From Candidatus Obscuribacteraceae bacterium (GTDB lineage: Bacteria > Cyanobacteriota > Vampirovibrionia > Obscuribacterales > Obscuribacteraceae): a stretch of 64,000 bases of DNA. The position numbers and the translations under genes were made by a program. The notes under the pieces were generated by a model that saw only the letters and a program-made list of their open reading frames with translations, was not told the DNA's origin and made no database searches. Within the stretch, counting starts at the first letter, position 1; each line of letters begins with the position of its first letter. The stretch is from assembly GCA_044226015.1 (NCBI GenBank), contig JBGAHS010000002.1, forward strand, positions 288,001-352,000, given 5' to 3'. Below, in pieces: positions 9,098-29,800 of this stretch.

Positions 9098-9895
9098 CTA
9101 AGATGGTAGCAAACGATCTCGTTCTTGCAAAAGTTGTGCCACCATACTAATCGCGATTTCATTGGGGTGATTGCTGCCAATCGGAAGTCCCATGGGGCAG
9201 AAGAAAGACTTGCTTTGCTCTGCGCTGAGACCAGCGTCGATAATGTCCTTACGCAAGCGCACCGCTTTAGCTTCACTACCAATTACACCGAGGTAGGGAA
9301 ACTTTCGAGATTGGAGAATCTTGATTAGAATTGGGCTATCGGTGCTGTGACCCATAGTCATGAGCGCCACAAAAGCACCATCGGGAATTTTCTGAACATA
9401 ATCAACCATATCTGGAACACAGATTGCATTGATAGAGGGACTTTGCGGAAGCTTGTTTAGCCATTCCTCGCGAGAATCAACACAGGTGACTTTGCAATCC
9501 AACTTTAGCAGCAAGTTCAATAGAGCATTAGCAACATGACCAGCTCCAAAAACCATAATATTCCACGAGCTACAATTATGTTTTTCGAAAAAGAGCTTGA
9601 CCATGCCGCCGCAGGTCATACCAACGTCACGTTCAAGGCTCCAATTTACGAAATGCGTCTTGCGTGAAGAGTCATCAGTTTGCAGCAGCTCAACAGCTTC
9701 GTCAATTGCTTTCTTCTCGACCTTGCCACCACCAACGGTTCCGTAAAACAAGCCAGAAGCAGTCACGAGCATTTTAGTACCGACATCATTCGGCACACTA
9801 CCTGTAGTATCAACAACCGTCACCGCAACAAAAGGAGTTTTACGAGACAAGAGCTCGTTCACCTTTTCGTAATAGGCTTGAGTGTCAATGCCCAT
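9098..9895 (-). CDS. xdhC: Xanthine dehydrogenase accessory protein
   Basis: GSVP, GTVGGG, GMTCGG, FGAGHV, YLGVIGS, PMGLPIG and EIAIS motifs; downstream of xdhAB. Confidence 0.92.
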   Translation of the reverse strand: MGIDTQAYYEKVNELLSRKTPFVAVTVVDTTGSVPNDVGTKMLVTASGLFYGTVGGGKVEKKAIDEAVELLQTDDSSRKTHFVNWSLERDVGMTCGGMVKLFFEKHNCSSWNIMVFGAGHVANALLNLLLKLDCKVTCVDSREEWLNKLPQSPSINAICVPDMVDYVQKIPDGAFVALMTMGHSTDSPILIKILQSRKFPYLGVIGSEAKAVRLRKDIIDAGLSAEQSKSFFCPMGLPIGSNHPNEIAISMVAQLLQERDRLLPS

Positions 9896-9916
9896 GGCGA
9901 GCTATCCTCTAACTGC

Positions 9917-12268
9917 TCAGGTTCCAGCCACCGCAGCTTTGGACTTTTTCTCATTTAGTGCAGCCAGGCACATTACGACTTCTTCGTTAGTTGCCGGCAA
10001 TTGAAGCCTGGCCAACTCAGCCCCACTTACTGAACCAAGCGCGTATTTTACTGCGCACCAAACAGACAGTCCCAAACAGAGAGGTGGCTCACCAACCGCC
10101 TTAGTTCCAACTACGTTTACCGGATTCTCATGGTCGATCCAATTCACATTGAAAACACGAGGCGTGTCTTGAACATTTGGAATTTTATAAGTAGTTGGAG
10201 AATGGCTCAAAAGAGTACCGTCTGCAGCATAGGTCAAAGATTCTGTTGTAACCCATCCCATGCCCTGAACGAATGCGCCGGTTAGCTGCCCTCTCGCTAT
10301 ACCAGGATTGACGGGCTTACCTATGTCCATAAGGATATCGACACGATCCACCACGATGTCACCAGTAAACTTGTCTATAGTGACCTCAGCGATGGCTGCG
10401 CCTTGTGTGTAATAAAGGAACGGATGACCGGATGCTGTGCCTTCAGGTCCAGCATCCCAACTCCAATCGATGCCTTTTGTCGCGTAGAAACCGCGCTCGC
10501 CAAGGCTAACTCGATTGAGATACGCAAGTTTCACCAACTCCTTAAAAGTCAGCTTGAATGCGGGTCGCCGACGATCAAAAATGTAGCCGCCTTCCCATCT
10601 CACGCTATCAGGCGCCGGAAGAATGTCGGCAACCTTAGTTGCAATATGATGCGCAGCGAGGTCTGTCAGCCCCTTGCGAATTTTCTGGCAAGCATCAACA
10701 GCAGCAGACCCATTGAGGTCTGTAGCACTTGATGCAGCAGTCGCAGAGGTGTTGTTGTTTTTCTCAGTTGATGTTGGCATCACAATAACTTGATCAGCAT
10801 CGATATCGAACTCGCCTGCCACAATCTGCTTGATGTTTGTGTTGACCCCCTGCCCCATTTCGGTTGCGCCAGTCGAAACTTGCACACTGCCGTCAAGGTA
10901 TACATTTACGAGCGCGTTAGCTTGATTCAAATGTTTTGTATTGAAGGAAATACCAAACTTAACGGCCGAGCACGCAATGCCTTTCAAATGCGTGTTTGAC
11001 TTAGCATTGAACTCATCAACAGCCAGCTTTCTTTGCTTGTATTCAGAAGATGTTTCGAGATCAACAAATATCTTCTCCAGATTATTATCGAAAACAATTT
11101 CCCCATAAGGAGTAGTGTTTCGCTCTTCCTTTCCATAAAGATTGCGCTTACGAACCTCCATGGGGTCGAGCTTTAAGTAAGCCGCGATTTCTTCCATGAT
11201 ATTTTCAATTTGTGCAATTCCCTGGGGTCCACCGAAACCACGGAAAGCAGTATTAGGAGGCAAATGAGTTTTGCAGATGGTTCCCGTTATATCGGCGTTG
11301 TCCAAATAATATGCATTGTCCACATGGCACATTGCTCTTGCCATAACGGCAGTGGATAGGTCGAAAAAGGCGCCGCCATCAGAATAGAAGTCGACCTTCA
11401 GACCAGTAATGACACCATCTGCGGTGAATGCGACTTTATAATCATTCTTGAAAGGGTGCCGCTTTCCGGTAACCTGCATGTCTTGATCTTTGTTATAGAC
11501 TATCTTTGCGGGACGACGAGTCTTCAACGCCACAAGAGCTGCCATTGCAGCTGGATGAGTAGCCTGGCTCTCTTTACCACCGAAGCCACCACCCATTCTT
11601 TTTGTGATGCAAACGACCTCATTTATGTTCAAACTAAGCAGATGCGCAATAACTTCTTGCACTTCTGATGGATGCTGCGTTGAAGAATGCACTTCAAGCT
11701 GATTGTATTCCTTCGGTATGACGTATGCCGCCTGAGACTCAAGGTAGAACTGCTCTTGTCCTTTGTTCTCAAAAACACCTTCAATAGTATGAGCTGCATT
11801 TTTGAAAGCTGTTTCTACATCGCCTCGCTTAATTCTGCGAGTGGGTCCTAAAAAGGATTTTTTCGCCCGAGCCTGGTCGATGGTCAATATCAAATCGAGC
11901 TTTTCGTAATCGATCTTTATTGCCTTTTTCGCAGCTTCGATAGCTTTTCGGGTCTCGGCAGCAATCACAACAATCGGCTGTCCCATGAATTCGATTTCCT
12001 CTTCGACAAGAAGAAGCTCATCCTTGATGATAGGACCAAATCTATTGTCGCTGGGTAGGTCTTTATAAGTAAACAAAGCTACCACGCCATCAACTTTTCT
12101 GGCGTCTTCGATGTTTAGCGACTTCAACTTCGCGTGTGAAACAGGCGCATAATAGAAATCTACAAGAAGCTCACCACGGGCTGTCGGAAAATCATCTATG
12201 TAGATGGATTCACCCGAGACGTGCCCCTTAGCTGAATCATGCGGTATATCCTTCCCTACGGCTGACAT
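9917..12268 (-). CDS. xdhB: Xanthine dehydrogenase molybdopterin-binding subunit
   Basis: HDSAKGHVSG, QFYLE, SSTQHP, GGGFGGKESQ, FRGFGGPQG, TEMGQG and KAVGEPP motifs. Confidence 0.95.
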   Translation of the reverse strand: MSAVGKDIPHDSAKGHVSGESIYIDDFPTARGELLVDFYYAPVSHAKLKSLNIEDARKVDGVVALFTYKDLPSDNRFGPIIKDELLLVEEEIEFMGQPIVVIAAETRKAIEAAKKAIKIDYEKLDLILTIDQARAKKSFLGPTRRIKRGDVETAFKNAAHTIEGVFENKGQEQFYLESQAAYVIPKEYNQLEVHSSTQHPSEVQEVIAHLLSLNINEVVCITKRMGGGFGGKESQATHPAAMAALVALKTRRPAKIVYNKDQDMQVTGKRHPFKNDYKVAFTADGVITGLKVDFYSDGGAFFDLSTAVMARAMCHVDNAYYLDNADITGTICKTHLPPNTAFRGFGGPQGIAQIENIMEEIAAYLKLDPMEVRKRNLYGKEERNTTPYGEIVFDNNLEKIFVDLETSSEYKQRKLAVDEFNAKSNTHLKGIACSAVKFGISFNTKHLNQANALVNVYLDGSVQVSTGATEMGQGVNTNIKQIVAGEFDIDADQVIVMPTSTEKNNNTSATAASSATDLNGSAAVDACQKIRKGLTDLAAHHIATKVADILPAPDSVRWEGGYIFDRRRPAFKLTFKELVKLAYLNRVSLGERGFYATKGIDWSWDAGPEGTASGHPFLYYTQGAAIAEVTIDKFTGDIVVDRVDILMDIGKPVNPGIARGQLTGAFVQGMGWVTTESLTYAADGTLLSHSPTTYKIPNVQDTPRVFNVNWIDHENPVNVVGTKAVGEPPLCLGLSVWCAVKYALGSVSGAELARLQLPATNEEVVMCLAALNEKKSKAAVAGT

Positions 12269-13710
12269 ACTGCTACCCTCCCCTCTTGCAAATCATAGAA
12301 AAACTTCAACATAAGATTTCGCGCAAGCTGCAAGCGAAATGCCTTAGAGCCACGAACATCATCAATCGGTGTAATTTCGCTGGCAGCCAGTTCCCCAGCC
12401 TCCCGCGCATTCTCGAGAGTGAGTTCTTTGCCTTTCCAGAACTCTTCAGTTTTTGGCAAGCGCAGAATTGTAGCCGCAACGCCACCATATGCAATGGCAA
12501 TGTTTTCCACCACATTTCCCTTCAGGCTTAGCTTGAAAGCTGCCGTGTTTGTCGAAATATCCAGGTGTTTGCGCCGGGACACTTTGTAAAGCTTCACGAT
12601 ATCGCCCTTCTTGGGAAGCTCTAAAGCAACGGAACTGATGAACTCGTCTCGTTCCATATCGAAAATTTTGTAGCCCTTATAGAACTCATTTATTCTCACT
12701 TGCCGGCTTCCGCGGGCGCTGCGAAGCTCAATCACCGCATCCATCACAAACAAGAATGGCGGTGTGTCAGCGATGGGTGAAGCGTTTGCGATGTTACCAG
12801 CGAGAGTTCCGGCATTTCTGATTTGAGGAGAACCAAATACCCACAAAATATTATGAAACTCAGGAACCTTTGCCCTGAAATAATCTTCGAGCTGACTTAA
12901 GGTAACCCTCGCACCAATCGTCACCAGCCCGTTTGTTTCAGAAATCTGGTCTAATCCTCGAAGATTTGAAAAGCTCATCACCGCCTGTGGTGCGTAGCCT
13001 CTCTTATTCATCACAACACAGACATCTGTTCCGCCAGATATGATTACAGCTTCAGGGTGCTCAGCCTTAAACTTGCTGGCGTCCTCTATGCTCGAAGGAA
13101 TGAATGCTGTAAAACCATCATCAGAGCGCAACGTCACACTCTCTTTTAAAGCAGACTGAAATGCCTTAATCATCTCTGCTTCAGGATACTGCTCTTCTAA
13201 TGGAAGCAACTCCTCAGGCTTTACTTCCATGCCCGATTTCAAAATAGGCTCGTAACCAGTACATCTGCAAAGGTTTCCCGTAGTGCAATCCTTCAGTCCC
13301 TGCAAATCTGCTTTGCCATTCACTTTTTTGAGGTCGTCAAAATAACCGCACATCGCCATGATGAAGCCAGGCGTACAAAAACCACACTGTGTGCCATGAC
13401 ATTCTGTCATGCACTTTTGAACTTCATTCAGCTGAGCATTTTGCTTCAAACCTTCAACCGTGATGATGTGGGTCAGGTCCATCTGATGCATGTACTTGAT
13501 GCAAGAGTTCAGCGCTTTGTACTCCAACTTTCCATCTTTCAATTTGCCAACGAGAACCGAGCAAGCACCGCAATCGCCTTCCTCGCAAACAATTTTGGTT
13601 CCAGTAACTCCCATGCGATATCGCAAGAACGAGGATAGCGGCTGAAAAGCTTCGTCTCCCTTAACTTTCCACTCTTTGCCGTTGACGTAAAAATGTAAGT
13701 AGTCTCTCAT
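12256..13710 (-). CDS. xdhA: Xanthine dehydrogenase small subunit (2x[2Fe-2S] plus FAD)
   Basis: CEEGDCGAC, QCGFCTPG, NLCRCTGY, GGTD and GNIANASP motifs. Start placed at ATG 13710 (AAGGA RBS). Overlaps xdhB. Confidence 0.93.
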   Translation of the reverse strand: MRDYLHFYVNGKEWKVKGDEAFQPLSSFLRYRMGVTGTKIVCEEGDCGACSVLVGKLKDGKLEYKALNSCIKYMHQMDLTHIITVEGLKQNAQLNEVQKCMTECHGTQCGFCTPGFIMAMCGYFDDLKKVNGKADLQGLKDCTTGNLCRCTGYEPILKSGMEVKPEELLPLEEQYPEAEMIKAFQSALKESVTLRSDDGFTAFIPSSIEDASKFKAEHPEAVIISGGTDVCVVMNKRGYAPQAVMSFSNLRGLDQISETNGLVTIGARVTLSQLEDYFRAKVPEFHNILWVFGSPQIRNAGTLAGNIANASPIADTPPFLFVMDAVIELRSARGSRQVRINEFYKGYKIFDMERDEFISSVALELPKKGDIVKLYKVSRRKHLDISTNTAAFKLSLKGNVVENIAIAYGGVAATILRLPKTEEFWKGKELTLENAREAGELAASEITPIDDVRGSKAFRLQLARNLMLKFFYDLQEGRVAVCQP

Positions 13711-14186
13711 AAACTTCCTTGATTGAGGCGAGTCAAAGTAGTTAGATCGCCTGAAATGACTATCATAGGGCATTCAATGAGATAAAACACCCATGGCAGC
13801 CCAACTTACTATTCCCCCGTGACCGAGACTCCAAGCGTCTACTATCTAATAACTTAATGGGAATTCCGGAGACTCCTCTCCCCGCAACCAAGCTTCTAGA
13901 AGCCTTTTCGGCATTTACCCCCAAGCCGGGGATGCTCAGAGCCGAAACAAAAGAGGAGAAGTGGCGACTTGCAAGCCTAGCCTGGCAAATCCTCTAGAAT
14001 TGAGCACCGGTTTTGTGAACGTAACTTCAAAAACTCTACGCAATCGCCCGGTGAGAGCAAGCAAAATCGGAAAACGAGATTAGTTTTTCTCTAGAATCGC
14101 TTAGCTGAAGCATTTGAGGCGGGTAGATGGCCAACGAAAGTAATAAAATTAGCCTGCTCTGAAATCACCAGCTTGTGAGGGATTGT

Positions 14187-15734
14187 ATGCACTCTTCGAA
14201 AGTTTTATCACTACTTTCTTCACTGCTAATCGCAGGAATTTCACTCACAGGCTCGGCGCATGCGGCGACAAAGAGTATTCTTGAAATTAAGCCAGCACCG
14301 AAGCACGAAGGCATAGTGTTCGACCAATATTACCTAGCCTGCTTATCTCAAGCATCCTACATGATTGGAGATTTGGAGAGCAAAACTGCTGTACTTGTCG
14401 ACCCAGAACGAAATATCGACAAGTATGTCAAAGACGCTGAGGCTCAGGGTCTTACGATAACCCATGTGATACTCACTCACGTTCACGCTGATTTCATAGC
14501 AGGACATATTGAAAGCGAAAAGCGCCTTAAAACAAAGATTTGCATGGGTTACAAGGCTGAAGCGAAATTCAAGTTTGAGCCGCTCAAAGAAGGAGACGTA
14601 ATCAAAGTTGGTCGCCTGAATTTGAAGGTTCTGGAAACGCCAGGACATACGACAGAATCCATTTCATTGCTGGTTTACGACAGCAAACAAGATGCAGCAA
14701 AGCCCTATGCCGTGTTGACAGGTGATTGCCTCTTCATCGGAGACGTTGGCCGTCCAGATTTGATGGCAACTTTCGGCGTCACTGCAAAAGAATTGGCCGG
14801 TATGGAATATGATTCATTGCATGACAAACTCTTGAAACTGCCTGATGAAACTCTGGTTTACCCAGCCCACGGAGCCGGTTCTCTCTGCGGCAAAAATCTC
14901 AGTGCAGAAACTGTTTCTACCATGGGCGAGCAACGCAAGTCTAATTATGCATTGCAGGACATGAGCAAAGAGAAATTCGTCAGCCTGCTAACGAGCAACC
15001 AACCAAAGCCACCAAAATATTGGGGATTTGAACGAAAGATCAATCTCAATGCACACAAGACGCTCGATGAAGCAATTGCCGAAAATTTAAAGCCTGTAAA
15101 GGCTGAAGCTGCTATTGCCTCGCAAGAGAAGAACAAAACGCAAATTCTCGATGTACGTGAAGCCGATGATTTTGCAAAACACTACCTGAAAGGTTCGGTG
15201 AACATTCCACTGAGCGGACACTATGCATTCTGGGCAGGAAACTTCCTGGACATCGATGCTCCGATTGTGGTTATCGCACCTACTGGCAAAGAGAAGGAAG
15301 CAGTAGTTCGGCTGGGACGCATCGGATTCGATAATGTCACTGGCTATGTTGATGGTGGCATCGATGCATTTTCGACTCATCAGGAATTACTCAATACTAC
15401 AAATCGTCGCTCTGCTAGTGAGTTGGCGAAAAGCATGCAGTCCGAAAAACCGCCACTGGTAGTAGACATTAGAAATGAAATGGAAAGAAAAGAGTCATTC
15501 ATTGAAGGCACCACTCCAATTCCATTGATGAACATTCTTGATGAGAGCAGTAAATTGCCTCACGACAGAGAGATAGTTGTGCAATGTGCAACAGGTTTTC
15601 GCTCTTCGATAGCAGCCAGCTTGCTGCGCAAGAAAGGGTTCGACAAAGTTACTGATCTCAGCGGCGGCATCACGTCATGGAAAGAGAGTAAACTTCCGGT
15701 AAAAGGCTCCACTTCTTGCAAAGCAGTTGATTGA
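14187..15734 (+). CDS. CstB-like persulfide dioxygenase / pseudo-rhodanese / rhodanese fusion with predicted Sec signal peptide
   Basis: MBL motifs THVHADF, TPGHT, TGDCLF and PAHGAGSLCGK. The first rhodanese domain has no Cys; the second has CATGFRS. N-terminus MHSSKVLSLLSSLLIAGISLTGSAHA; GAGGGA RBS before ATG 14187. Confidence 0.88.
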   Translation: MHSSKVLSLLSSLLIAGISLTGSAHAATKSILEIKPAPKHEGIVFDQYYLACLSQASYMIGDLESKTAVLVDPERNIDKYVKDAEAQGLTITHVILTHVHADFIAGHIESEKRLKTKICMGYKAEAKFKFEPLKEGDVIKVGRLNLKVLETPGHTTESISLLVYDSKQDAAKPYAVLTGDCLFIGDVGRPDLMATFGVTAKELAGMEYDSLHDKLLKLPDETLVYPAHGAGSLCGKNLSAETVSTMGEQRKSNYALQDMSKEKFVSLLTSNQPKPPKYWGFERKINLNAHKTLDEAIAENLKPVKAEAAIASQEKNKTQILDVREADDFAKHYLKGSVNIPLSGHYAFWAGNFLDIDAPIVVIAPTGKEKEAVVRLGRIGFDNVTGYVDGGIDAFSTHQELLNTTNRRSASELAKSMQSEKPPLVVDIRNEMERKESFIEGTTPIPLMNILDESSKLPHDREIVVQCATGFRSSIAASLLRKKGFDKVTDLSGGITSWKESKLPVKGSTSCKAVD

Positions 15735-17005
15735 TGTCTAGCAAAAAAGAGTTCCAGAAAGAACTAGATCGAGTCAAAAGCGAAATACACAGGCGGAATT
15801 TTCTGAAGGCGCTCTTGCTTGGCACTATAGGTGGTGCTGCAACTGCCTGCTCTAAGCTTGGTGAAAACTCTCAAGAGCCACCAATAAACATTCCAGCAGG
15901 CCAGACGGTAGCTCGTTTTCCAGAAAAATCAGAATTAATAGTGCTCACCGACCGCCCTCCACAGCTGGAGACGCCGCTACTATATTTGCGTGAGGACCTC
16001 ACACCAAACGAAGCATTTTTCGTACGCTGGCATTACTCAGGCATACCAACTCAGGTTGATTTGAGAACCTTCAAGCTCAACGTCACAGGGTCTGTAGAAA
16101 CTCCACTTTCGCTGTCAGTAGATGACTTGAAGAAGAACTTCGAAGCGAAATCGATCGTAGCCGTTTTGCAATGCTCAGGCAATTCGCGTCGTTATGTGGA
16201 ACCAAACGTACCCGGTGGTCAATGGCAGAATGGTGCGATGGGTAACGCAAAGTGGACGGGCGTTCCACTGAAAGCATTGCTGGAAAAAGCAGGGCTAAAG
16301 AAAGAAGCAGCAGAAATTGCCCTGGCGGGACTGGACGAGCCACCACTTTCAAACATGCCAAAGTTCGCAAAGTCACTGGCGCTGGAACATGCTCTGAGCG
16401 AAGATGTGCTGGTCGCTTATGCAATGAACGATGCGCCACTACCCATGGTGAATGGATTTCCGCTGAGACTCGTTGTGCCAGGCTATTACGCGACCTACTG
16501 GGTAAAATCGCTGGCTGAAATTTCAGTGCTGCCAACAAAATTTGATGGCTACTGGATGAAAAAGGCGTATCGAATTCCTGACAATGAATATGCAGAAGAA
16601 AAGCCTGACTGCCTGGCAAAGGACACAGTTCCCATTAACAGAATGAATGTCCGGTCGATATTTGTTCGTCCAGACACAAGCGACCTAGTAAGCGCCGGAA
16701 AGGCTTTCGATATCGAAGGCTTGGCGTTTGATGGAGGAGTGGGCATCAGCAAAGTAGAGCTGAGCATTTACTCCGGTGATAATAACCCTGGAAAGTGGGC
16801 TGAGGCAAAAATTCAGCCAAATAGTTTTGGCAAATACTCGTGGGTACGCTGGAAATTCAACTGGCAGCCACCTGGCAAAGGCGATTACACTCTTGCAGTT
16901 CGAGCAAGCAATGCAAAAGGAGAGACCCAAACAGATCTAATTCATTGGAATAAGAGTGGCTATATGCGCAACTCTATAGAGAAGATGAAAGTGACGGTGG
17001 TCTGA
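15734..17005 (+). CDS. sorA: Sulfite oxidase family molybdoenzyme (SorA-type), Tat-exported, probable lipoprotein
   Basis: RRNFLK twin-Arg followed by ATAC lipobox; LTPNEAFFVRWH, Mo-ligating LQCSGNSR, GFPLRLVVPG, Ig-like dimerisation domain. Confidence 0.85.
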   Translation: MSSKKEFQKELDRVKSEIHRRNFLKALLLGTIGGAATACSKLGENSQEPPINIPAGQTVARFPEKSELIVLTDRPPQLETPLLYLREDLTPNEAFFVRWHYSGIPTQVDLRTFKLNVTGSVETPLSLSVDDLKKNFEAKSIVAVLQCSGNSRRYVEPNVPGGQWQNGAMGNAKWTGVPLKALLEKAGLKKEAAEIALAGLDEPPLSNMPKFAKSLALEHALSEDVLVAYAMNDAPLPMVNGFPLRLVVPGYYATYWVKSLAEISVLPTKFDGYWMKKAYRIPDNEYAEEKPDCLAKDTVPINRMNVRSIFVRPDTSDLVSAGKAFDIEGLAFDGGVGISKVELSIYSGDNNPGKWAEAKIQPNSFGKYSWVRWKFNWQPPGKGDYTLAVRASNAKGETQTDLIHWNKSGYMRNSIEKMKVTVV

Positions 17006-17379
17006 TGAAAAGCTACATTTTGCTTCTACTCTTGTGCGCATCTTCTCTTCTTGTCTCTTGTTCAAGTACAGAACCGAGCGCAGATTCTCCTGCCCCGGCA
17101 CAAATCTCGAAAACGGCAAAAGGCGAAGAATCGCCAGTGCATAGCATTGAGCTCCCAAAACTGGAAGCAGACTTTCCGCCAGGAGAGGGAAGAGACCTGT
17201 TTATTTCACGATGCACCGTTTGCCATTCACTTCGCTACGTGACCATGCAACCCGACTTTCCTGAAGCAACATGGGTAAAGGAAGTTGATAAAATGCGCAA
17301 GACCTGGGGAGCACACATTACCGAGGACGAGGCAAAAACAATAGTATCGTATTTAGTGACAATCAAAGGCAAGAAATAG
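17005..17379 (+). CDS. sorB: Monoheme cytochrome c lipoprotein (SorB-like)
   Basis: LLVSC lipobox; PPGEG...CTVCHS...MQP...WVKEVDKM...GAHI pattern; TGATG overlap with sorA. Confidence 0.8.
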   Translation: MKSYILLLLLCASSLLVSCSSTEPSADSPAPAQISKTAKGEESPVHSIELPKLEADFPPGEGRDLFISRCTVCHSLRYVTMQPDFPEATWVKEVDKMRKTWGAHITEDEAKTIVSYLVTIKGKK

Positions 17380-17392
17380 GGAGATTGCTGAC

Positions 17393-20188
17393 TTGAGCGA
17401 AGAGCACCCACAGCAAGAAAACGAAGCAGCCCTGCCGCGAATAGAATATGGGCTTATCAAGGCACATGGCATCGCAGCTCTTGCGGCGGTGGTTATTTCG
17501 GGACTGTTTGGACTTTTCATTGCCACAAAAATGCATATGCCAGATATGGCCGGAACTCATGCATGGTCAAGCTGGGGACGACTTCGCTTCGACCACACAC
17601 AGGGCATATTTTTTGGATGGCTGGGAAATGCGTTTCTCATGTTTCTCTATCACATCGTGCCCCGCCTGAGCAATCGTGAAGTATTCAGCAAAAAGTTAGG
17701 CTGGTTCATATTTGCAGTTTGGAACTTTGCAATCTTGATTCCCGGATGGATATTATGCTTGATGGGACAAAGTCAGTCTCTGGAATGGGCAGAGTTTCCA
17801 CTTGTCATAGACATATTCGTTGTAGCAGGCATGGCACTCGCCACGCTTCAATTCGTTCAACCTCTTTTGAGCAACGCTTCACTATCAAAACTATACGTTT
17901 CAGGTTGGTACATCATCGGTGGACTCATATTCACCCTGCTCGCTTATCCATTAGGAAATTTCGTACCACAATTGGTTTCTGGGGCAAAAGGTGCAGCCTT
18001 CAGCGGACTATGGATTCACGATGCAGTAGGTCTTTTTGTTACACCGCTTGCGCTAGCGATCTCTTACTGGGTCATTCCGGCAGTCACCCGCCGCCCAATC
18101 TTCAGCCATTTCCTCTCGATGATAGGATTTTGGCTTTTGTTCTTTGTATATCCTCTTAACGGCACGCACCACTACGTATATTCGTCAATTCCAATGGAAA
18201 CACAAGTCGCAGCGGTTACGGCATCTGCGATTTTAGGCATCGACGTAATTCTGGTAGTCACAAACCTTCTGCTTTCAATGAAGGGCGCAGCTAAAGAATC
18301 TATGGATGACACACCGCTGCGCTACGTTTTAACAGGAACATTCTTCTATTTAATTGTAAGCCTGCAGGGCTCTCTACAAGCATTGATGCCTATCAACAAG
18401 CTAGTTCATTTTAGCGATTGGGTAATAGGGCACGCGCACCTCGCGATGGTAGGTTTTGCTAGTTTCACCGTAATTGGTGGCATGGGTCATATCTGGCAGC
18501 GAATTCCAGAGGCAAAGTTCAACGCAGGTTTGTACCGAGCTTCGTACTGGCTGATTTTTATCGGGATGCTAGTGATGGTAGGCGAGCTGACTCTTGCAGG
18601 TCTCGTCGAAGCTAATATCTGGCAAGGAGCACAACCGTGGATTGAGTCGGTGCGAGCAGTTAAGCAATACTGGCTGGTCAGGACGGGCAGCGGCGCAATC
18701 TTGTTAATCGGTTTCCTGCATTTGTGCTTCGCATTCTGCTCTGGCAAGAAAACCGAAAGCAGTGTTTCATCAATTTCAACACAAGAAGAAAATGCAGCAA
18801 GCAAGGATGAACAGCTTGCGCAAAAACCAGCGCCTGTTTTGAACATGGCCTATTTGTCAGCTTCAATTGCAGGCGTGGGCTTCTTTCTTATGTCTTTCAG
18901 CTTGCTTGGAATAGCTCCTGGTTTGGCTATCGAAAGTGACGTGAAGAAAACAAAACCAAAGACGATGATTCCGCTTACGGCTAGCGAAGAACATGGACGT
19001 GAGGTATACGCTCGCGAAGGATGCGCTTATTGCCACACGCAGCAGGTCAGAAAAGTAGAATCTGACGCCGAAAGATTTGGTATGCCAACCCGGTCATGGG
19101 AAACAGTTTATGATTACCCGCAACTCTGGGGCACCCGAAGAATAGGACCAGACCTGGCAAGGGAGTCTTCAGTTCGCACAGATGACTGGCAATTAGCTCA
19201 CCTATATAACCCCCGATTAATTGTAAGCGATTCTGTCATGCCGCCTTATCCCTGGTTGTTCGACGGTTCAATCGACAAACCTAATAAGGATGGCCGGGAC
19301 TTACTTGCATACATCAAATCGCTAGGTCGTGCGCGCGAGCTTTCAGGAATAGAAGGGCAACCGGTTCCCGAGTATTGTCAATGCTCAGATGACGTAAAAA
19401 AACTCGAAACCACACCAATAGGATTTAACGCAAACGCCAGCAAAGCCAGACGAACAGGACCTCCCATTCAATTGTCGATGCCTACAGATGCTGCTGTGCT
19501 CAGCACTACGGTGAAAAGAGGCGAAACTCTGTTCGCACAGAACTGCGCTTCATGCCATGGAGCCGAAGGACGTGGAGACGGCAAAGTTGCAGCAAACCTG
19601 ATGCCCGCACCTGCGAACCTGAGAATCAAGAAGCTTTCAGCGGCACGCATCAGCTTCGTGCTTGAGAATGGTGTTTATGGAACGTCCATGCCGGCCTGGC
19701 GTGATATGGCTCACGATGATTTGGTCAGCCTTGCCAGCTACGTAAGCACTCTTTCTGACAAGGCACCATCGATTTCGATGCCGGTCACCGATATGACGAC
19801 AACACTCTTCAAAAAGAATTGCGCCAGCTGTCACGGCACCGCTGGTGGTGGCGATGGACCAGCAGCGGGAGCAATGGCTCCCGTACCGACAAACTTCCAC
19901 CTGGTGAAGCCTAGCATTGCACGAGCGCTCATGGTAATCAACGACGGCATTCCAGGAACGTCCATGCCACCCTGGAAAGACCAACTTTCTCTGCCCGAAA
20001 GAGCAATGCTCGCTTCTTACGTTTCGTCCATGTATAAAGAAGAAGGAACTTCCAAAGCGAAGGCAGAAGGCACAAGCAAATCAGAAGGCAGCACTAAGCC
20101 AGAAGCAACTACTAAACCAGAAGGCACAACTATCTCAGAAGCCACTATTGATACCGCAACTGGCACAAAACCTGAGGTAAGAAAATGA
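17393..20188 (+). CDS. Fused C-family (cbb3-type) heme-copper oxidase: CcoN-CcoO plus two cytochrome c domains
   Basis: CcoN His ligands in GRLRFDHT, WIHDAVG, YPLNGTHH and DWVIGHAH; CcoO EGCAYCHTQ, GTRRIGPDL and SVMPPY; two CASCH domains each with GTSMP. Confidence 0.9.
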   Translation: MSEEHPQQENEAALPRIEYGLIKAHGIAALAAVVISGLFGLFIATKMHMPDMAGTHAWSSWGRLRFDHTQGIFFGWLGNAFLMFLYHIVPRLSNREVFSKKLGWFIFAVWNFAILIPGWILCLMGQSQSLEWAEFPLVIDIFVVAGMALATLQFVQPLLSNASLSKLYVSGWYIIGGLIFTLLAYPLGNFVPQLVSGAKGAAFSGLWIHDAVGLFVTPLALAISYWVIPAVTRRPIFSHFLSMIGFWLLFFVYPLNGTHHYVYSSIPMETQVAAVTASAILGIDVILVVTNLLLSMKGAAKESMDDTPLRYVLTGTFFYLIVSLQGSLQALMPINKLVHFSDWVIGHAHLAMVGFASFTVIGGMGHIWQRIPEAKFNAGLYRASYWLIFIGMLVMVGELTLAGLVEANIWQGAQPWIESVRAVKQYWLVRTGSGAILLIGFLHLCFAFCSGKKTESSVSSISTQEENAASKDEQLAQKPAPVLNMAYLSASIAGVGFFLMSFSLLGIAPGLAIESDVKKTKPKTMIPLTASEEHGREVYAREGCAYCHTQQVRKVESDAERFGMPTRSWETVYDYPQLWGTRRIGPDLARESSVRTDDWQLAHLYNPRLIVSDSVMPPYPWLFDGSIDKPNKDGRDLLAYIKSLGRARELSGIEGQPVPEYCQCSDDVKKLETTPIGFNANASKARRTGPPIQLSMPTDAAVLSTTVKRGETLFAQNCASCHGAEGRGDGKVAANLMPAPANLRIKKLSAARISFVLENGVYGTSMPAWRDMAHDDLVSLASYVSTLSDKAPSISMPVTDMTTTLFKKNCASCHGTAGGGDGPAAGAMAPVPTNFHLVKPSIARALMVINDGIPGTSMPPWKDQLSLPERAMLASYVSSMYKEEGTSKAKAEGTSKSEGSTKPEATTKPEGTTISEATIDTATGTKPEVRK

Positions 20189-23836: not shown

Positions 23837-26800
23837 CTGCGTTCATCTTCATACTACTCTCTGGCCGCGCTCTCAGCCTTAGTTTTGCTGATCTTACCGA
23901 CAGCAAAAGCCAGGGCGCAAAGCGCTGCAAATTACAATCTCGGCTCAGCGGCACGAACCAGAGCAGCAGGGCTCAGCCAGGGACAGAGCGTCAACATCAC
24001 GCGCGCTGGACAGTCGGTAACTATTAGGGCTGGAAGCCTATTGACACCAGCAGAGAAGGTGGCTTTAACTCAGGTTTTGTCGTCTGGACAACAATCTCTT
24101 ATATTGAATGCACGAGGTATGGCGATTGGTGGACAGTTCAGTTCTACCGACCTTTCTTCGAATATAGGCAACCTCGGTGTGCCGCAGGGAGTGACAGGCT
24201 ATCTCAACTTCAGCCAGCAAAATTCATTGAGTTTGAGCGGAAATTTGCTCAACAATGGCAGCCTGTATGCGTTTTCCAGTAACCCAGGCAATGCGACTGG
24301 AAGCATCAGCGCTAATAACATAGTCAATTATGCCAACGCTTTGATTTCATCAAATTTGAACAGCGCATTTGCAAGCAGCACAGGTGCCTTGCCAAATTTC
24401 AATTTGATTTTACACGCGGTCAACAACATTACCAATCACGGCGTGATTTCCAGCTCAGGCTCTTTAACTTTGTCGGCTGGCAGTTCGTTAATCAACACCC
24501 CGCAAACACTCACTCAAACAACCCAAACTCTAATTCAAGCTCAAAACAACCTGAACATAATCACAAGCTCAATAATCAATTCGGGAAATTTGACCTCGCT
24601 TGCGTCAAACATTAACGTAAGCTCGTCTCTCCAAAAACTCGACTTCAATAATAATTCCGGAGTAGTGAGTGCGATTCTCGGAGACATTAACGTAAGCAAT
24701 CTTTCCAGCTCTGCCTTAGCATCGTTGAATCTTCAGGGTGGGAATTTTTACTCTCAATCACTCAATCTCTCAGCTGCTAGCGGTGCGGTAGAGGCAAATC
24801 TGGGTGAAGTGAGCGGTTGGATCAACGTAAACGCATGCAAGGCGAACGTTGGCGCCGCGACAGACAATCTGAAACTGGGAAACCTGAACATAACCGGTGA
24901 CCCTACGTTTTTTAATTCAGCAGGAACCCTTACCTTATCAAACCTCAGTAATACCTCAGGAAACGCTCTGGCATTGATAGCAAGCCATGACGTCATCGTC
25001 AGTGCCGGTACAATCGACACAACAAATCCACTCGGCGGAAATGGTGGCAACCTCACCATCATTGCTGGTGCCAACATCACTGGCGGAAGCAGTGGTTCAA
25101 ATGACACGACAACAACCCTTACTATCACTGGTCCCTCAGCAACGGGTGGGGCCATTGACACATCAGGTGTGAGTTCCATTAATACCAGCGGAACTTTGAC
25201 AACAACCAACCACGGCGGAAACGGTGGCAATGTTTTTATTGCTGCTTTCAGTGGTACTAAATCAGGAACCCTTGAACCTGGCACAGTCAACCTGGGAAGC
25301 AGCGGCTACATCAATACCGCTGGTGGTGGCAGTGATTTCACAAGCAGCGGACGAGTCACCATCATGGCTGGAGCAACAGCCGACCCCGCATCTGGAGCAG
25401 CAATTGTCCTTCCAGCCATTTATACAGCGACAGACCCTGTTTACTCTCAATCAAGTTCATCAGGCGGCAACGTCACGATATCGACAGCAACGCCTGTTGT
25501 TTCAGGTACTGTCACCATATTAAATGGAGCCATGGGCGGTACAGGAAGTATCACAGCAGGAACAACACAAAACACAAGCGTTTCCATTGCATCAAGAGGT
25601 GGCGGCGCAAGCATCGAGGTTCAGCCGACTCTGGCACAATGGCAGATAGACATAATCACGCAGGCGCTCAACATTGTTAACGCCCAAAGATTAGCGGAAG
25701 ACCCGTCACTGCCAGCACTTCAATATAGCGCTGGGCTCAGCGCCGTGGCCAGCCAGCAGGCTTCCTATTTAGCACAAACTGGACACCTTGGTCATTTCAG
25801 CACACTAGGGGAAACGCCAACAAACAGAGCTACAGTTATAGGCTTATCCACTTCCGGATGCTGCGCGGAGAATGCAGGGTTCGCTTCTGGTTACACAATT
25901 TTGGACGGATTCAATGTCGTCAACGACATGATGTTCGCAGAACCCAATACCAGTGGCACCCACCACTTCAACTTAGTGGGAACAAGCGCCAGCCACAATA
26001 ATTACGCTGGTTTCGGATTTGCAACTAATGGCTCGTCGATGTACTTCGTAACTGATTTTTCCAGAAACGACCCAGGAGCTGGCAAGACCAACATCAACAG
26101 CACTCCAATCTTGGGTGGGCTCGGTGGTGCACCAGGCAACACACCAGTACCACCCGTAGTATCAGGCAGCAACAACACTGTTCGTGCAATAGGTGCTAAT
26201 AATTATTTGCCCACCAGCATCATAAGCAACGGAAACGTTTCAATTACAGCCGGAAAAGATCTTACTGCAACAGGCTCTATAATAACGAACGGGCAAAACG
26301 GTATTCAATCTAGCTCAGGTAGCCCAAGAAATGCTACGAACGCGGGAAACATCAGCATAACAGCTGGAAATAATGTAAGCCTGTTCAATCTACAAGCAGG
26401 CGGGGGAATTGGAGCGACTTCTAACTCAGCAAATAAAGGCGCAGGTGGTGCTGGTGGCAGCATCAACGTTAGCTCTAGCAACGGAAGCATAAGCATTCTG
26501 CCTCTCAATACCGCATGTTCACCTTGCATAGCCGTCGCCGCACAAGGTGGTGCTGGCGGAGCCGCGATGGCTAGTGGACTCAGCGGAGGCAAGGGCGGCG
26601 ATGGCGGCACAGTCACGCTGACAGCTAACAATGGAAATATAAATCTAACAGCAATCGAAGTTGGCGGTGGCGGTGGCGCAGGCGGAGCAGGTGGTAGCAC
26701 AGGTGGTGCCGGTGGTGCTGGTGGCAAGGGTGGCAACATCACACTTTCTGCAAGCACAATCACAATACAAGACTACATTTCAGCCTCTGGCGGTGGTGGC

Positions 26801-29800
26801 GGCGGCGCAGGAGCCAGCGGCTCAGTGGCAGGCGGTGGTGGCGGCGGTGGAGCTTACGGCATGCCGGGCTTCGGTGGCACGTCAAATTCCACATCAGCCG
26901 GAGGCGGTGGCGCAGGCGGAGGACTGGTAGGTGCTTTCGGTGGACCGCGCACATCATCGATGATAGCCGAATTACGAAATGGCAATGGTGCTTCAGGCGG
27001 TGTTTCGGCACCTGGTGGCAGTGTCGGCATCATCGGAGGAGGTGGTGGCGGCGGCACCGGGTCATCAGGCACTGGCGGCAATGGTGGCGACATGGGCGCA
27101 GCGGGCTCTGGTTCTGGCGCGATAGCCGGAGGCGCTGCTGGAGCAGGTGGCAGCATCTCGATCACCGCAAAAACAGCAGTTGTTCAGTCGACAGTTTCAG
27201 GATTTTTTGGCAGCCTTTCTGCCACCAATGGAACGTCCTCAGTTCTATCAGCTGGAACGAACGGGACAGTGACAATAAGCACCAATGAAGGTTCAGTGAG
27301 CGCGGCGTCAACCTACAGCTCGCTCGCGGATTACAGCAGCGGCACTCGCACTGAAAGCCTTCTCGTTTCTGCTGGCTTCGAAGTGGGCTCGACAAAGGGC
27401 GGCAATGGTTCTTCTGGGGGCATATTAGCTGGTTCACAAGCTAATTCAATCACTATAAATGGAACTGGAAATTCAGGCTCTCTCAGCTCGGGAATTTTCT
27501 TCTCCAACGGAACAGCCTCGGTCACCATCATTGAGAACTCCCTCCCCGTAGTCTTTTCTGGTACTGCAAAGGTAACACCAGCTGAACTCATAGCCATCAA
27601 TCAAGTTTTACTCGGTGGCGGTCAAACCATAGTTTTAGATGCAAATGGAGCCGCTGTCGGCGGCAGTTTATCCATAAACTCCGGCAACATACCTGCGGGT
27701 GGGTTCACTAAACTTGTTTTACCACCAAGCGTCACGCTTACAGACAACGTTGCTGAACTCAGCTTTTCGGATAGTGTCACCATCAATGGAAGCTTCCTTT
27801 ACGCAGGCAGCAATGGCACCGCTACGATCACAACCCCGTTGTTCATTAACAATGGCAGCGTCTCACCTACAGGCGGCGCAACAAACCTGCTCATACAGAG
27901 CACTGCCGGAAGCAATCTAGAAATCGGTGGCAACGGCACCACTAGCGCACCGGGATCTCTGTCATTCACTGCCAGTGGTGGCGCACTGAACATCACAGGA
28001 AATGTCCACGTAAACAGCCCCAGCGTGACGATAAATGCAGGAGATGCAGTTGGCATCGCTCCTTCAGCCTCCTTTACGCTTAACACTGGAAACGTACTAA
28101 GCGTAAACACAGGCCTTATATTCAACTCTGCTGGATTTCTTGGAGGAACGCAGAACTTCAACCTGGCGCCAGCCGGCTCAGCAATTGGAACGATTGCAAA
28201 CTCAAATGGCGATGTTATTCTTGCTGCCAACCAGTTCATAAATAGCGCTGGAAAGAGCGTACTGATCATCGCTTCTGGAAACATCATTGGAAGCAAGCTC
28301 AGCTCAATAAATCTCTCGAATACCAAGGGAAAAGGCGGTAGTCTAATCGCCCTGGCAGGTTTTTCTTTCACTCCAGCGACGATCGGTCAAATCACAGATT
28401 TGAACCAACTATTTACTGTGTCTTCTGTTTCAGCAACTGGTGGTAGCATCAATCTTGCCAAAACCAGCATCAATACATCCAGTACTTTCAAATCAGCAAC
28501 GAACAGCGATGCCGGAAGTATCACCTTGCTAGGCAACGCAGTGGCGGGAGGCAACTCTGGTGTAGTCGTAACTGGTGCAATTAATGCTAGCTCAGTGTCA
28601 GGCAAAGGTGGAACGTTCAGGGTATTCGCCCCTGGTGGAGCGACCATAAACGGCGCTATTAACACAAAAGGAGCCAGCGGTGGCGGTGCGGTTTTATTGT
28701 CCGCCGCGCCATATACAAATGGATCTATTCAGGTACTTGGCGGATTCCTTTCGCCATCTGCTAACTTGCAGGCAGCCAGTCCAGCAGATGGAGCCGCTGC
28801 ATCTATCCTCATAAACGGCACTGTTAGCAGTTCTTCAAGCAACGGCGCCGGCGGCGCAGTAACACTCTCGGCTGACTCATTCATTCAGGTCAACGGAGCT
28901 ATCGACAGCAGCGCTCGCACCAGCGGCGGTGCGATAACAATCAACTCATTAAATGGCACAGTCAGCTTAGCTAATCTGAACTCGAGTGGACTGGCTGGCA
29001 GCAGCACCCTAACGACTGGTTCTGCAGGCAACATAAGTGTCAGTGCCTCATCGTTCATTTCAATCAAAGGCAATCTAAGCGCGAGCGGTGGCAGTACAAG
29101 TATTGCAAGACAGAATGCAGGTTCTGGCGCAAACATTAGTCTACAGACTTCCAACCGAGACTCATTGAGTGGATTCTACGTCGGCAACATTTCGGTAAGC
29201 GGCTATCTAAGCAGTGCCGGAGGAAACGCACTAGCTAAAACTTCGGGAGGAAAAGGCGGCAACGCAGGCGCCATAGACCTGAAGGCTGGCTATCTACAAG
29301 TCAAAGGAAAGAGCGGCGCTAACAGCATCATTGCGAGTGCAGGTAGCGGCTTTGCAGGAAAAGGAAGCTCCGGTTCCGTCAGTTTGAGCACCTATGCAAC
29401 TCAAGCGATTCCCACAAACTTTGACCTCTTGAGCAAAGTCGCCAGCGAATATGCGTTGCCTGGAGGAGTCTTTAATGTGGGCGCCGGAAGCGCTGTCGTC
29501 AACGGAACAGCAGGTTCAATTGTCAGCGGTACTGATACATTCAGCATAAGCAATGCAGCAGCGTTAAGCAAAAGCAGCAACGTACAGGGCAGACTTTCGG
29601 TCACCATTGGCGGTGGCGCACAACAATTAGACTATGAAGGACAACAGGTCAGCACCGCTTCGCTCACAGGCAACATAAGAACCAAGGTCACACCAGCTGC
29701 GGCGCTTGCGCTCTATCAGCTAGCTCTGGGACAGACGCAAACAATCGGACTCAACAGTGATGGCTCACTGTCTCCACAGAACCCGCAATCCAAGATTTCG

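Follow-up and report, generated by a model that had tools for sequence, protein, structure and literature searches.

A stretch of 64,000 nucleotides from a Candidatus (Ca.) Obscuribacteraceae genome (contig JBGAHS010000002.1, assembly GCA_044226015.1; hereafter the window) carries on its forward strand a gene for a persulfide dioxygenase (PDO) related to CstB of Staphylococcus aureus, which is predicted to be exported by the Sec pathway to the periplasm. This gene, pdo (14187..15734), heads an operon with genes for a SorAB-like sulfite dehydrogenase and a fused cbb3-type oxidase. Sequence comparison confirms that a conserved, putatively exported CstB-type enzyme at the head of a Sor-cbb3 operon is real and new. 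We propose that this enzyme would turn the sulfur of thiosulfate (and of polysulfide) into sulfite on its own cysteines, that SorAB would oxidise this sulfite to sulfate, and that the electrons would pass to the cbb3 oxidase, a reading that we hold at close to even chances. What we observe is the architecture of the signal, the set of catalytic residues and an overlapping, conserved pdo-sorA-sorB-ccoNO layout, while we infer every chemical step.

The pdo reading frame begins with an ATG, 5 nt downstream of a ribosome-binding-site-like GAGGG (14177..14181, read directly), and encodes 515 residues; a purine-rich motif also stands upstream of the equivalent start in many of 19 genomic loci inspected. 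Pfam recognises a Lactamase_B domain and two rhodanese stretches, and the closest PDB entries are Alicyclobacillus 3tp9 (E 1e-75) and S. aureus 3r2u (E 9e-61), aligned from query residues 47 and 42, respectively. An AlphaFold2 model of residues 27-515 has a pLDDT of 89.7 and a TM-score of 0.86 against 3tp9. The order of a PDO domain, a Cys-less rhodanese and an active rhodanese, which the initial annotation had read from the sequence, is borne out by the Pfam stretches, the PDB matches and the positions of the cysteines. The dioxygenase domain (14313..15056) is followed by a Cys-less pseudo-rhodanese domain (15057..15386) and by a catalytic rhodanese domain (15387..15701) with C467 in a CATGFR motif, together with R429 and R472. 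A probably flexible tail with C511 (15702..15734; pLDDT below 50 at the end) closes the protein, and its TGA overlaps the ATG of sorA. Cysteines are found at positions 52, 119, 181, 234, 467 and 511 only, the middle rhodanese having none. The dioxygenase domain has HVHADF from H98 and a GSLCGK loop with C234; both motifs had been noted earlier and are present, but the loop of staphylococcal CstB, to which GSLCGK had been likened, reads GSPCGK. By these features the window PDO is classed as a CstB-type (type III) persulfide dioxygenase-rhodanese.

Ahead of the metallo-beta-lactamase (MBL) core stands an extension of 42 residues, in agreement with the stretch of about 40 residues with a basic residue, a hydrophobic core and an AHA site that had been described before. 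It consists of a predicted Sec/SPI signal peptide of 26 residues (14187..14264), with K5, a hydrophobic core and A-H-A at -3 to -1 directly before the predicted cut, and of a conserved mature linker of 16 residues (27-42; 14265..14312), in which E33 and K35 are nearly invariant and part of the clade has a Cys. A signal-like extension was found in 42 of the 120 homologues listed, namely the top 40 (one of them truncated within the signal) and two more; among the other 78, one has a 36-residue non-hydrophobic extension and the remainder start at or near the core.

We evaluated the signal with custom heuristics on 41 homologues, a set that includes the window protein and excludes the truncated one and a near-duplicate, with the cut set six residues before the conserved linker Glu. 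Mean identity in this clade is 24% over residues 2-26, 45% over the linker and 69% over the dioxygenase domain. The residue at -1 is A, S or G in all 41 members, and the -3/-1 rule is satisfied by 39 of the 41 at the predicted register, by 1-9 at seven shifted registers and by 26 at a shift of +4. Ahead of the uncharged run, 39 members carry a net positive charge and 2 have none; over its first seven mature residues every member is neutral or acidic. The start codon lies 46-50 codons ahead of the core Gln in all 19 genomic loci. No twin-Arg motif or lipobox was flagged in the 41 aligned signals, and the linker Cys is ruled out as a lipoprotein Cys for lack of a flagged lipobox. The signal thus appears conserved in architecture and not in sequence, and this conservation across the clade supports the Sec signal peptide that the initial annotation had proposed for the window protein.

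The residues that carry the chemistry of CstB can be followed into the window PDO through the 3r2u alignment, which gives the dioxygenase-domain positions in S. aureus CstB numbering (PMC12934615; published work is cited here and below for its available sections). The His2Asp Fe(II) triad of CstB (H56, H119, D145) and H58 are matched, as residues only, by the predicted Fe ligands H98, H154 and D180 and by the second-sphere H100. The Cys-Gly loop (G198, C201, G202, K203, L205), R154 and F148 correspond to G231, C234, G235, K236, L238, R189 and F183, with CstB P200 replaced by Leu, and rhodanese C408 with the steering R370 and R413 corresponds to C467, R429 and R472. All the mapped CstB catalytic residues are kept according to this alignment. 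All 102 aligned proteins, 43 with and 59 without a signal, share H98, H100, H154, D180, F183, R189, G231, C234, G235, R429, C467 and R472. CstB can use its own Cys, and not bound glutathione persulfide, by means of its Cys-loop machinery, and the window PDO keeps this machinery, in line with the earlier suggestion that the enzyme would act through its own cysteines. Mature chains of the exported clade hold 6.7 Cys on average, versus 3.8 in the 59 signal-less neighbours, and a linker or tail Cys is present in 40 of the 41 clade members. A strict C119-C181 or linker-tail disulfide was considered and is not backed by co-occurrence; the extra Cys vary without fixed pairing.

Three genes follow pdo on the same strand. 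The product of sorA (15734..17005) is a SorA-type molybdopterin sulfite dehydrogenase with a twin-Arg motif, a lipobox-like Cys and R98, H100, C147 and Y255, which we take to be the SorA active-site residues. sorB (17005..17379) encodes a SorB-type monohaem cytochrome c with a lipobox-like Cys; its ATG overlaps the sorA stop, and TGATG overlaps link both pdo to sorA and sorA to sorB. Starting 13 nt past sorB, a gene for 931 residues (17393..20188) fuses cbb3-type CcoN and CcoO with two further cytochrome c domains and has three CxxCH motifs. SorA aligns with 2blf over residues 59-420 (E 1e-115), and the SorA and SorB models of NCBIfam are the best-scoring ones for these genes, the SorT model reaching only 187 for SorA; we file the two products as SorAB-like. 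The CcoN His motifs, presumably the haem and CuB ligands, and the family-C helix-VII Tyr align with solved CcoN (9g6b/3mk7), at a score below the NCBIfam ccoN cut-off. Because the main respiratory cbb3-cytochrome bc operon lies separately on contig C5, the ccoNO fusion oxidase is accessory. Of this context the initial annotation had noted the sorAB linkage, which stands; it had omitted the dedicated cbb3 oxidase at the operon end and a signal-less PDO paralogue elsewhere in the genome (C7:165971-167392, 50% identity, in a housekeeping context), which could do the cytoplasmic job. The layout of the cst/sqr-pdo detoxification clusters (sulfide:quinone oxidoreductase (SQR), TauE, CstR-type repressor) is not matched by the neighbours of pdo, which are sorAB-ccoNO and xdhABC. 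A promoter and terminator scan was at chance level (5 vs 7.0; 10 vs 7.5), and a complex prediction for mature PDO with SorA scored 0.00, its controls not folded, and is not counted as evidence.

We asked how far signal and linkage go together among 104 genomes of the family, likely Ca. Obscuribacterales. These hold 111 PDO matches in 76 genomes, 24 of them signal-bearing by reading of the N-terminus, and SorA matches in 33 genomes, 26 being orthologues at no less than 57% identity. A signal-bearing PDO stands directly before sorA in 21 of 24 cases, 20 on one contig and one (G110) across a contig break; the exceptions are G049 and G050, where the genes are apart, and G103, where the contig ends inside the gene. 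In contrast, a sorA match on the same contig is found for none of the 87 other PDO matches, as judged from coordinates, with open reading frame (ORF) starts read for about 10 of the 87. The association between signal and sorAB linkage that had been raised earlier is thus seen. In the tree the linked PDOs are one clade nested among signal-less proteins; they therefore count as one acquisition and not as independent support.

Outside this family the Sor-oxidase module is found by itself. At 80 metagenome sorA loci, sorB is present at 68 and a match to the fusion protein at 26, about 18 of which have the same CcoNO fusion behind sorB. The module thus stands alone elsewhere, at loci of which many are short, and the exported PDO looks like an addition in this family. 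As a separate observation, metagenome loci L117-L137, L157 and L189, of about 55% GC, show the order sorA-sorB-(small ORF)-ccoNO-cytochrome c fusion with no PDO; we found no description of this PDO-free module, in which a sulfite dehydrogenase is paired with a dedicated cbb3 oxidase. A single-protein scan of genome contigs gave only 3 distant Bacteroidota loci, an ESM Atlas search with homologue P0010 only generic MBL-rhodanese clusters of 459-473 residues, and plasmid searches only distant PDO and SorA relatives. A Bradyrhizobium plasmid encodes, behind sorAB, an MBL protein that was ruled out as a PDO of the same type because it has no CstB loop and no rhodanese, and a Caballeronia plasmid has a SorA-like gene about 3 kb from an sqr-pdo-yeeE-tauE cluster. 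Close homologues that carry a name belong to Ca. Obscuribacterales, a cyanobacterial lineage that is diderm, respires and does not photosynthesise, and 'sulf' is absent from the available main text of PMC4040986.

Further signal-bearing CstB-type proteins are among the best 150 of a profile search over 1.84 billion representatives, and they form a second exported clade, separate from that of the window in the tree. A search with one of its members listed 120 relatives, of which 114 were signal-like by a custom filter and 100 ended in AGC. Named members come from Desulfosoma, Syntrophobacterales, Desulfoferrobacter (Desulfobacterota), Planctomycetota, Ca. Omnitrophica and Ca. Rifleibacterium; Desulfosoma, Syntrophobacterales and Desulfoferrobacter belong to anaerobic groups. 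A single origin of both exported clades is rejected (approximately unbiased test, p 0.0037, LG+G4, quick tree, 24 rows), and on this tree CstB-type export apparently arose independently in the second clade. No member of this clade was found at E 1e-130 in 301 genomes of the phylum to which the window genome belongs, where only two genomes had ordinary copies, nor at E 1e-170 among 401 genomes from a second phylum, a search run with no positive control. Its proteins (P0339, P0324, P0361, P0371, P0476, P0412-P0530) mostly have a third rhodanese domain, an acidic linker rich in His, a loop reading CNSAYR and a tail rich in Pro, and their AGC end may possibly provide a swinging-arm Cys or precede a selenocysteine.

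What the operon would do depends on the chemistry of CstB. In CstB the loop Cys-Gly is a glutathione mimic: Fe and O2 S-sulfonate the loop Cys, and the group is handed to the rhodanese persulfide; only thiosulfate and no sulfite is released, tetrasulfide is accepted, and sulfite inhibits the enzyme (PMC12934615). Three type III PDOs in E. coli likewise gave thiosulfate (PMC5702731). The idea in the initial annotation that the dioxygenase product is delivered directly to SorA is unsupported for this reason, and the sulfite for SorA is more likely to come from the rhodanese step on thiosulfate.

In the reading that we prefer, C467 would take the sulfane of thiosulfate and release sulfite. The sulfane would pass to the loop C234, possibly via the tail Cys, and Fe and O2 would oxidise the C234 persulfide to an S-sulfonate, from which a second C467 persulfide would release thiosulfate, as published for CstB. 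Two enzyme-bound sulfanes would in this way be oxidised and recombined into one thiosulfate, a cycle that we regard as the most economical connection between the genes. The net reaction would be S2O3(2-) + O2 + H2O -> 2 SO3(2-) + 2 H+, and a small thiol would not be needed. By removing sulfite, SorAB would draw the unfavourable rhodanese step forward and at the same time lift the inhibition by sulfite known for CstB; of the eight electrons, four would arrive at the oxidase. These uncultured non-photosynthetic cyanobacteria thus likely have an undescribed periplasmic route from thiosulfate or polysulfide to sulfate. The fuller proposal, a four-gene, Sox-independent and thiol-free periplasmic pathway from thiosulfate to sulfate with energy conservation, in which export of CstB-type enzymes arose at least twice, we advance more tentatively, as plausible but short of an even call.

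The rest of the genome, which is 92% complete, was searched for sulfur supply and competing routes. None of its 22 Pyr_redox_2 matches is SQR-like (15 by NCBIfam, 7 by their N-termini), the type II SQR query had no match in it, no SoxB or GshB (glutathione synthetase) was found above cut-off, and no SoxA, TsdA or YeeE was found. A sulfide-derived persulfide supply or another thiosulfate route is therefore undetected in this genome. Across the family, searched with one type II query, an SQR match is present in 28 of the 104 genomes: in none of the 21 with a linked PDO and in both with an unlinked one (G049, G050). It adjoins a PDO match of the non-signal type in 5 of the 28. Across the 104 genomes, in which kin are not independent, type II SQR and the exported PDO-Sor-cbb3 operon almost exclude each other. 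The genome also has a fusion of a CoA-disulfide reductase with a rhodanese (L098, G000:C11:72897-74651) that resembles CoA persulfide reductase and might serve as a sink for cytoplasmic persulfide where no GshB was detected.

Several points weigh against the proposed thiosulfate oxidation. Its first step, the splitting of thiosulfate by C467, runs opposite to what CstB (PMC12934615) and the three type III PDOs in E. coli (PMC5702731) do, and the proposal does not account for Fe(II) loading and reduced Cys in the periplasm. Both Sor subunits score under their NCBIfam cut-offs (SorA 482 bits, cut-off 600; SorB 75.5, cut-off 93). The window genome and 7 of the other 18 loci retain a possible internal start 2-4 codons ahead of the core Gln (present in 8 of 19, absent in 11). 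The exported PDO is away from sorA in G049 and G050; G007 and G108 keep the sorA-sorB-ccoNO module with no signal-bearing PDO; G107 is at a contig end; and a PDO match is found at none of the 80 metagenome sorA loci, many of which are short. The absence of SQR rests on one type II query, and linkage and SQR absence may be one inherited event.

Detoxification in the periplasm would be a different use of the same proteins: CstB chemistry would end at thiosulfate made from polysulfide or persulfide, and SorAB-cbb3 would separately clear sulfite and protect the dioxygenase. The unchanged CstB residues fit this, as do the thiosulfate-only output, tetrasulfide use and sulfite inhibition of CstB and the occurrence of SorAB-CcoNO with no PDO. 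It poorly explains the translational coupling to sorA that is kept in 21 of 24 genomes, or why no SQR or downstream thiosulfate pathway was detected, and we consider it rather unlikely. Nearest to the initial annotation is a switch of product, in which an altered active site would let the C234 S-sulfonate be hydrolysed, giving sulfite directly from polysulfide for SorA. Such a switch seems improbable to us: the rhodanese Cys and both steering Arg are invariant, and Q13T, a change aimed at making CstB produce sulfite, gave an inactive enzyme (PMC12934615), even though there are clade-specific changes near the core (S54, V99, C119, C181, H290), an invariant C52 at a position occupied by His in the staphylococcal protein, and the linkage to sorA.

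It is very improbable that the enzyme is not periplasmic at all, its N-terminus being skipped or tethering it on the cytoplasmic face, with sulfite reaching SorAB by way of a TauE exporter. At V44 an in-frame GTG (14316..14318, GAAGG 4 nt upstream) could start a signal-less form, the genome has four TauE genes, and the PDOs with a location stated in the available primary data are all cytoplasmic. However, the GTG is not conserved and 11 of 19 loci have no start near the core; 39 of 41 members are positively charged ahead of the hydrophobic run, all 41 are neutral or negative just behind the cut, and the -3/-1 site holds at one register; the linker is conserved, and a signal-less paralogue is already present. 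An O2-independent sulfur carrier or transferase, with sulfane trafficking among its own Cys and partners and the Fe site secondary, would suit the Desulfosoma, Syntrophobacterales and Desulfoferrobacter names and the AGC end (100 of 120) of the second clade and the terminal Cys of 40 of 41 window-clade members, but deserves little credence given an invariant Fe triad and CstB loop, an operon that ends in an O2 reductase and two exported clades rejected as one.

Some features of the surroundings were recorded along the way. Purine-catabolism genes lie divergently upstream of pdo: the xanthine dehydrogenase genes xdhABC in four genomes (window 9098-13773; L032, L033, L095), and in L034, L086 and L089 a cluster that by eye is malate synthase-, allantoinase-, allantoicase- and uricase-like. 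Four genomes of the same genus have ATTAGTTTT about 95-115 nt upstream of the pdo start (window ~14075-14090; L031-L033), and a promoter-like TTGTCA...TATAA motif is found upstream of pdo in L034, L084, L088 and L089. At L077-L083, L085, L087, L090 and L091, in several genera, sorB and ccoNO are separated by an extra ORF of 160-180 residues with a hydrophobic N-terminal stretch, as they also are in the metagenome loci, though not in the window. Further downstream, the window has a Gly/Ser/Asn-rich ORF of 2719 residues (23885-32044) that resembles a large secreted adhesin-type protein.

In the literature searched, with most subscription papers outside its coverage, we found no periplasmic PDO that was experimentally shown or signal-bearing, and the phrase 'periplasmic persulfide dioxygenase' had no match. 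Nor was a description of an exported PDO-sorAB-cbb3 operon found there, including the available sections of PMC13047784 and PMC6018796; the supplements of PMC12934615 (Fig. S7, an alignment of CstB-like proteins) and PMC5702731 might include signal-bearing members. The earlier statement that characterised PDOs are cytoplasmic or mitochondrial holds for those whose location is stated in the primary data available. Methylophaga PDOs have no signal peptides (PMC6548844), and a review asserts periplasmic PDOs in sulfur oxidisers, citing a paper on SQR, a metabolic model and a paper on cytoplasmic localisation, with no signal-bearing example in the part available (PMC9774590).

The operon supplies the signal-bearing gene that was once lacking for a proposed periplasmic sulfur dioxygenase. 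The predicted signal sits in the one type of PDO that needs no bound glutathione persulfide, and this PDO is wired to a sulfite dehydrogenase and an oxidase, so that one can test whether CstB chemistry works beyond the cytoplasm and in the direction that consumes thiosulfate. Searches for the markers sox, tsdA, sqr or rdsr would overlook the sulfur oxidation to which the operon points in Ca. Obscuribacterales. If true, the four-gene pathway would be a lithoheterotrophic sulfur metabolism for non-photosynthetic cyanobacteria, and would supply an actual example of the type of periplasmic sulfur dioxygenase earlier suggested for Acidithiobacillus.

Among known systems, S. aureus CstB (close relative 3r2u) and Alicyclobacillus 3tp9 share with the window PDO the order of PDO, pseudo-rhodanese and rhodanese, the His2Asp triad, the Cys-Gly loop and the rhodanese Cys with two Arg. 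Compared with CstB, the window protein adds the predicted signal peptide, the linker and Cys 52, 119, 181 and 511, and where the S. aureus operon has cstR, cstA, tauE and sqr, the window has sorAB and the cbb3 oxidase, with no SQR detected. BpPRF of Burkholderia phytofirmans (5ve3) is also a PDO-rhodanese fusion, but it is glutathione-dependent with an ETHE1-type site (E 2e-26 and TM-score 0.44 against the window PDO), and we know of no linkage to sorAB. In BpPRF thiosulfate is the sulfur source of the rhodanese and sulfite the product (PMC9163753), a precedent for the direction proposed here. Another precedent is the periplasmic PspE of E. coli, which draws sulfane sulfur from thiosulfate, an unfavourable direction that becomes faster when a PDO is coupled to it (PMC10215317); like the enzyme proposed here, PspE is an exported rhodanese acting on thiosulfate, but it is a single domain that transfers to glutathione and has no dioxygenase or respiratory partner. 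The Rohwerder-Sand model for Acidithiobacillus, a periplasmic sulfur dioxygenase that turns persulfide sulfur into sulfite as we propose here, was dropped because the genes had no signal peptides (PMC6335251), whereas the window gene bears a predicted signal and is CstB-type. Finally, the operon shares with the sulfite:cytochrome c oxidoreductase SorAB of the Starkeya novella type (2blf) a closely matching SorA and an adjacent monohaem SorB, and differs from it in that both subunits are lipoprotein-like and their genes are linked to a fused cbb3 oxidase of their own and to an upstream, putatively exported PDO.

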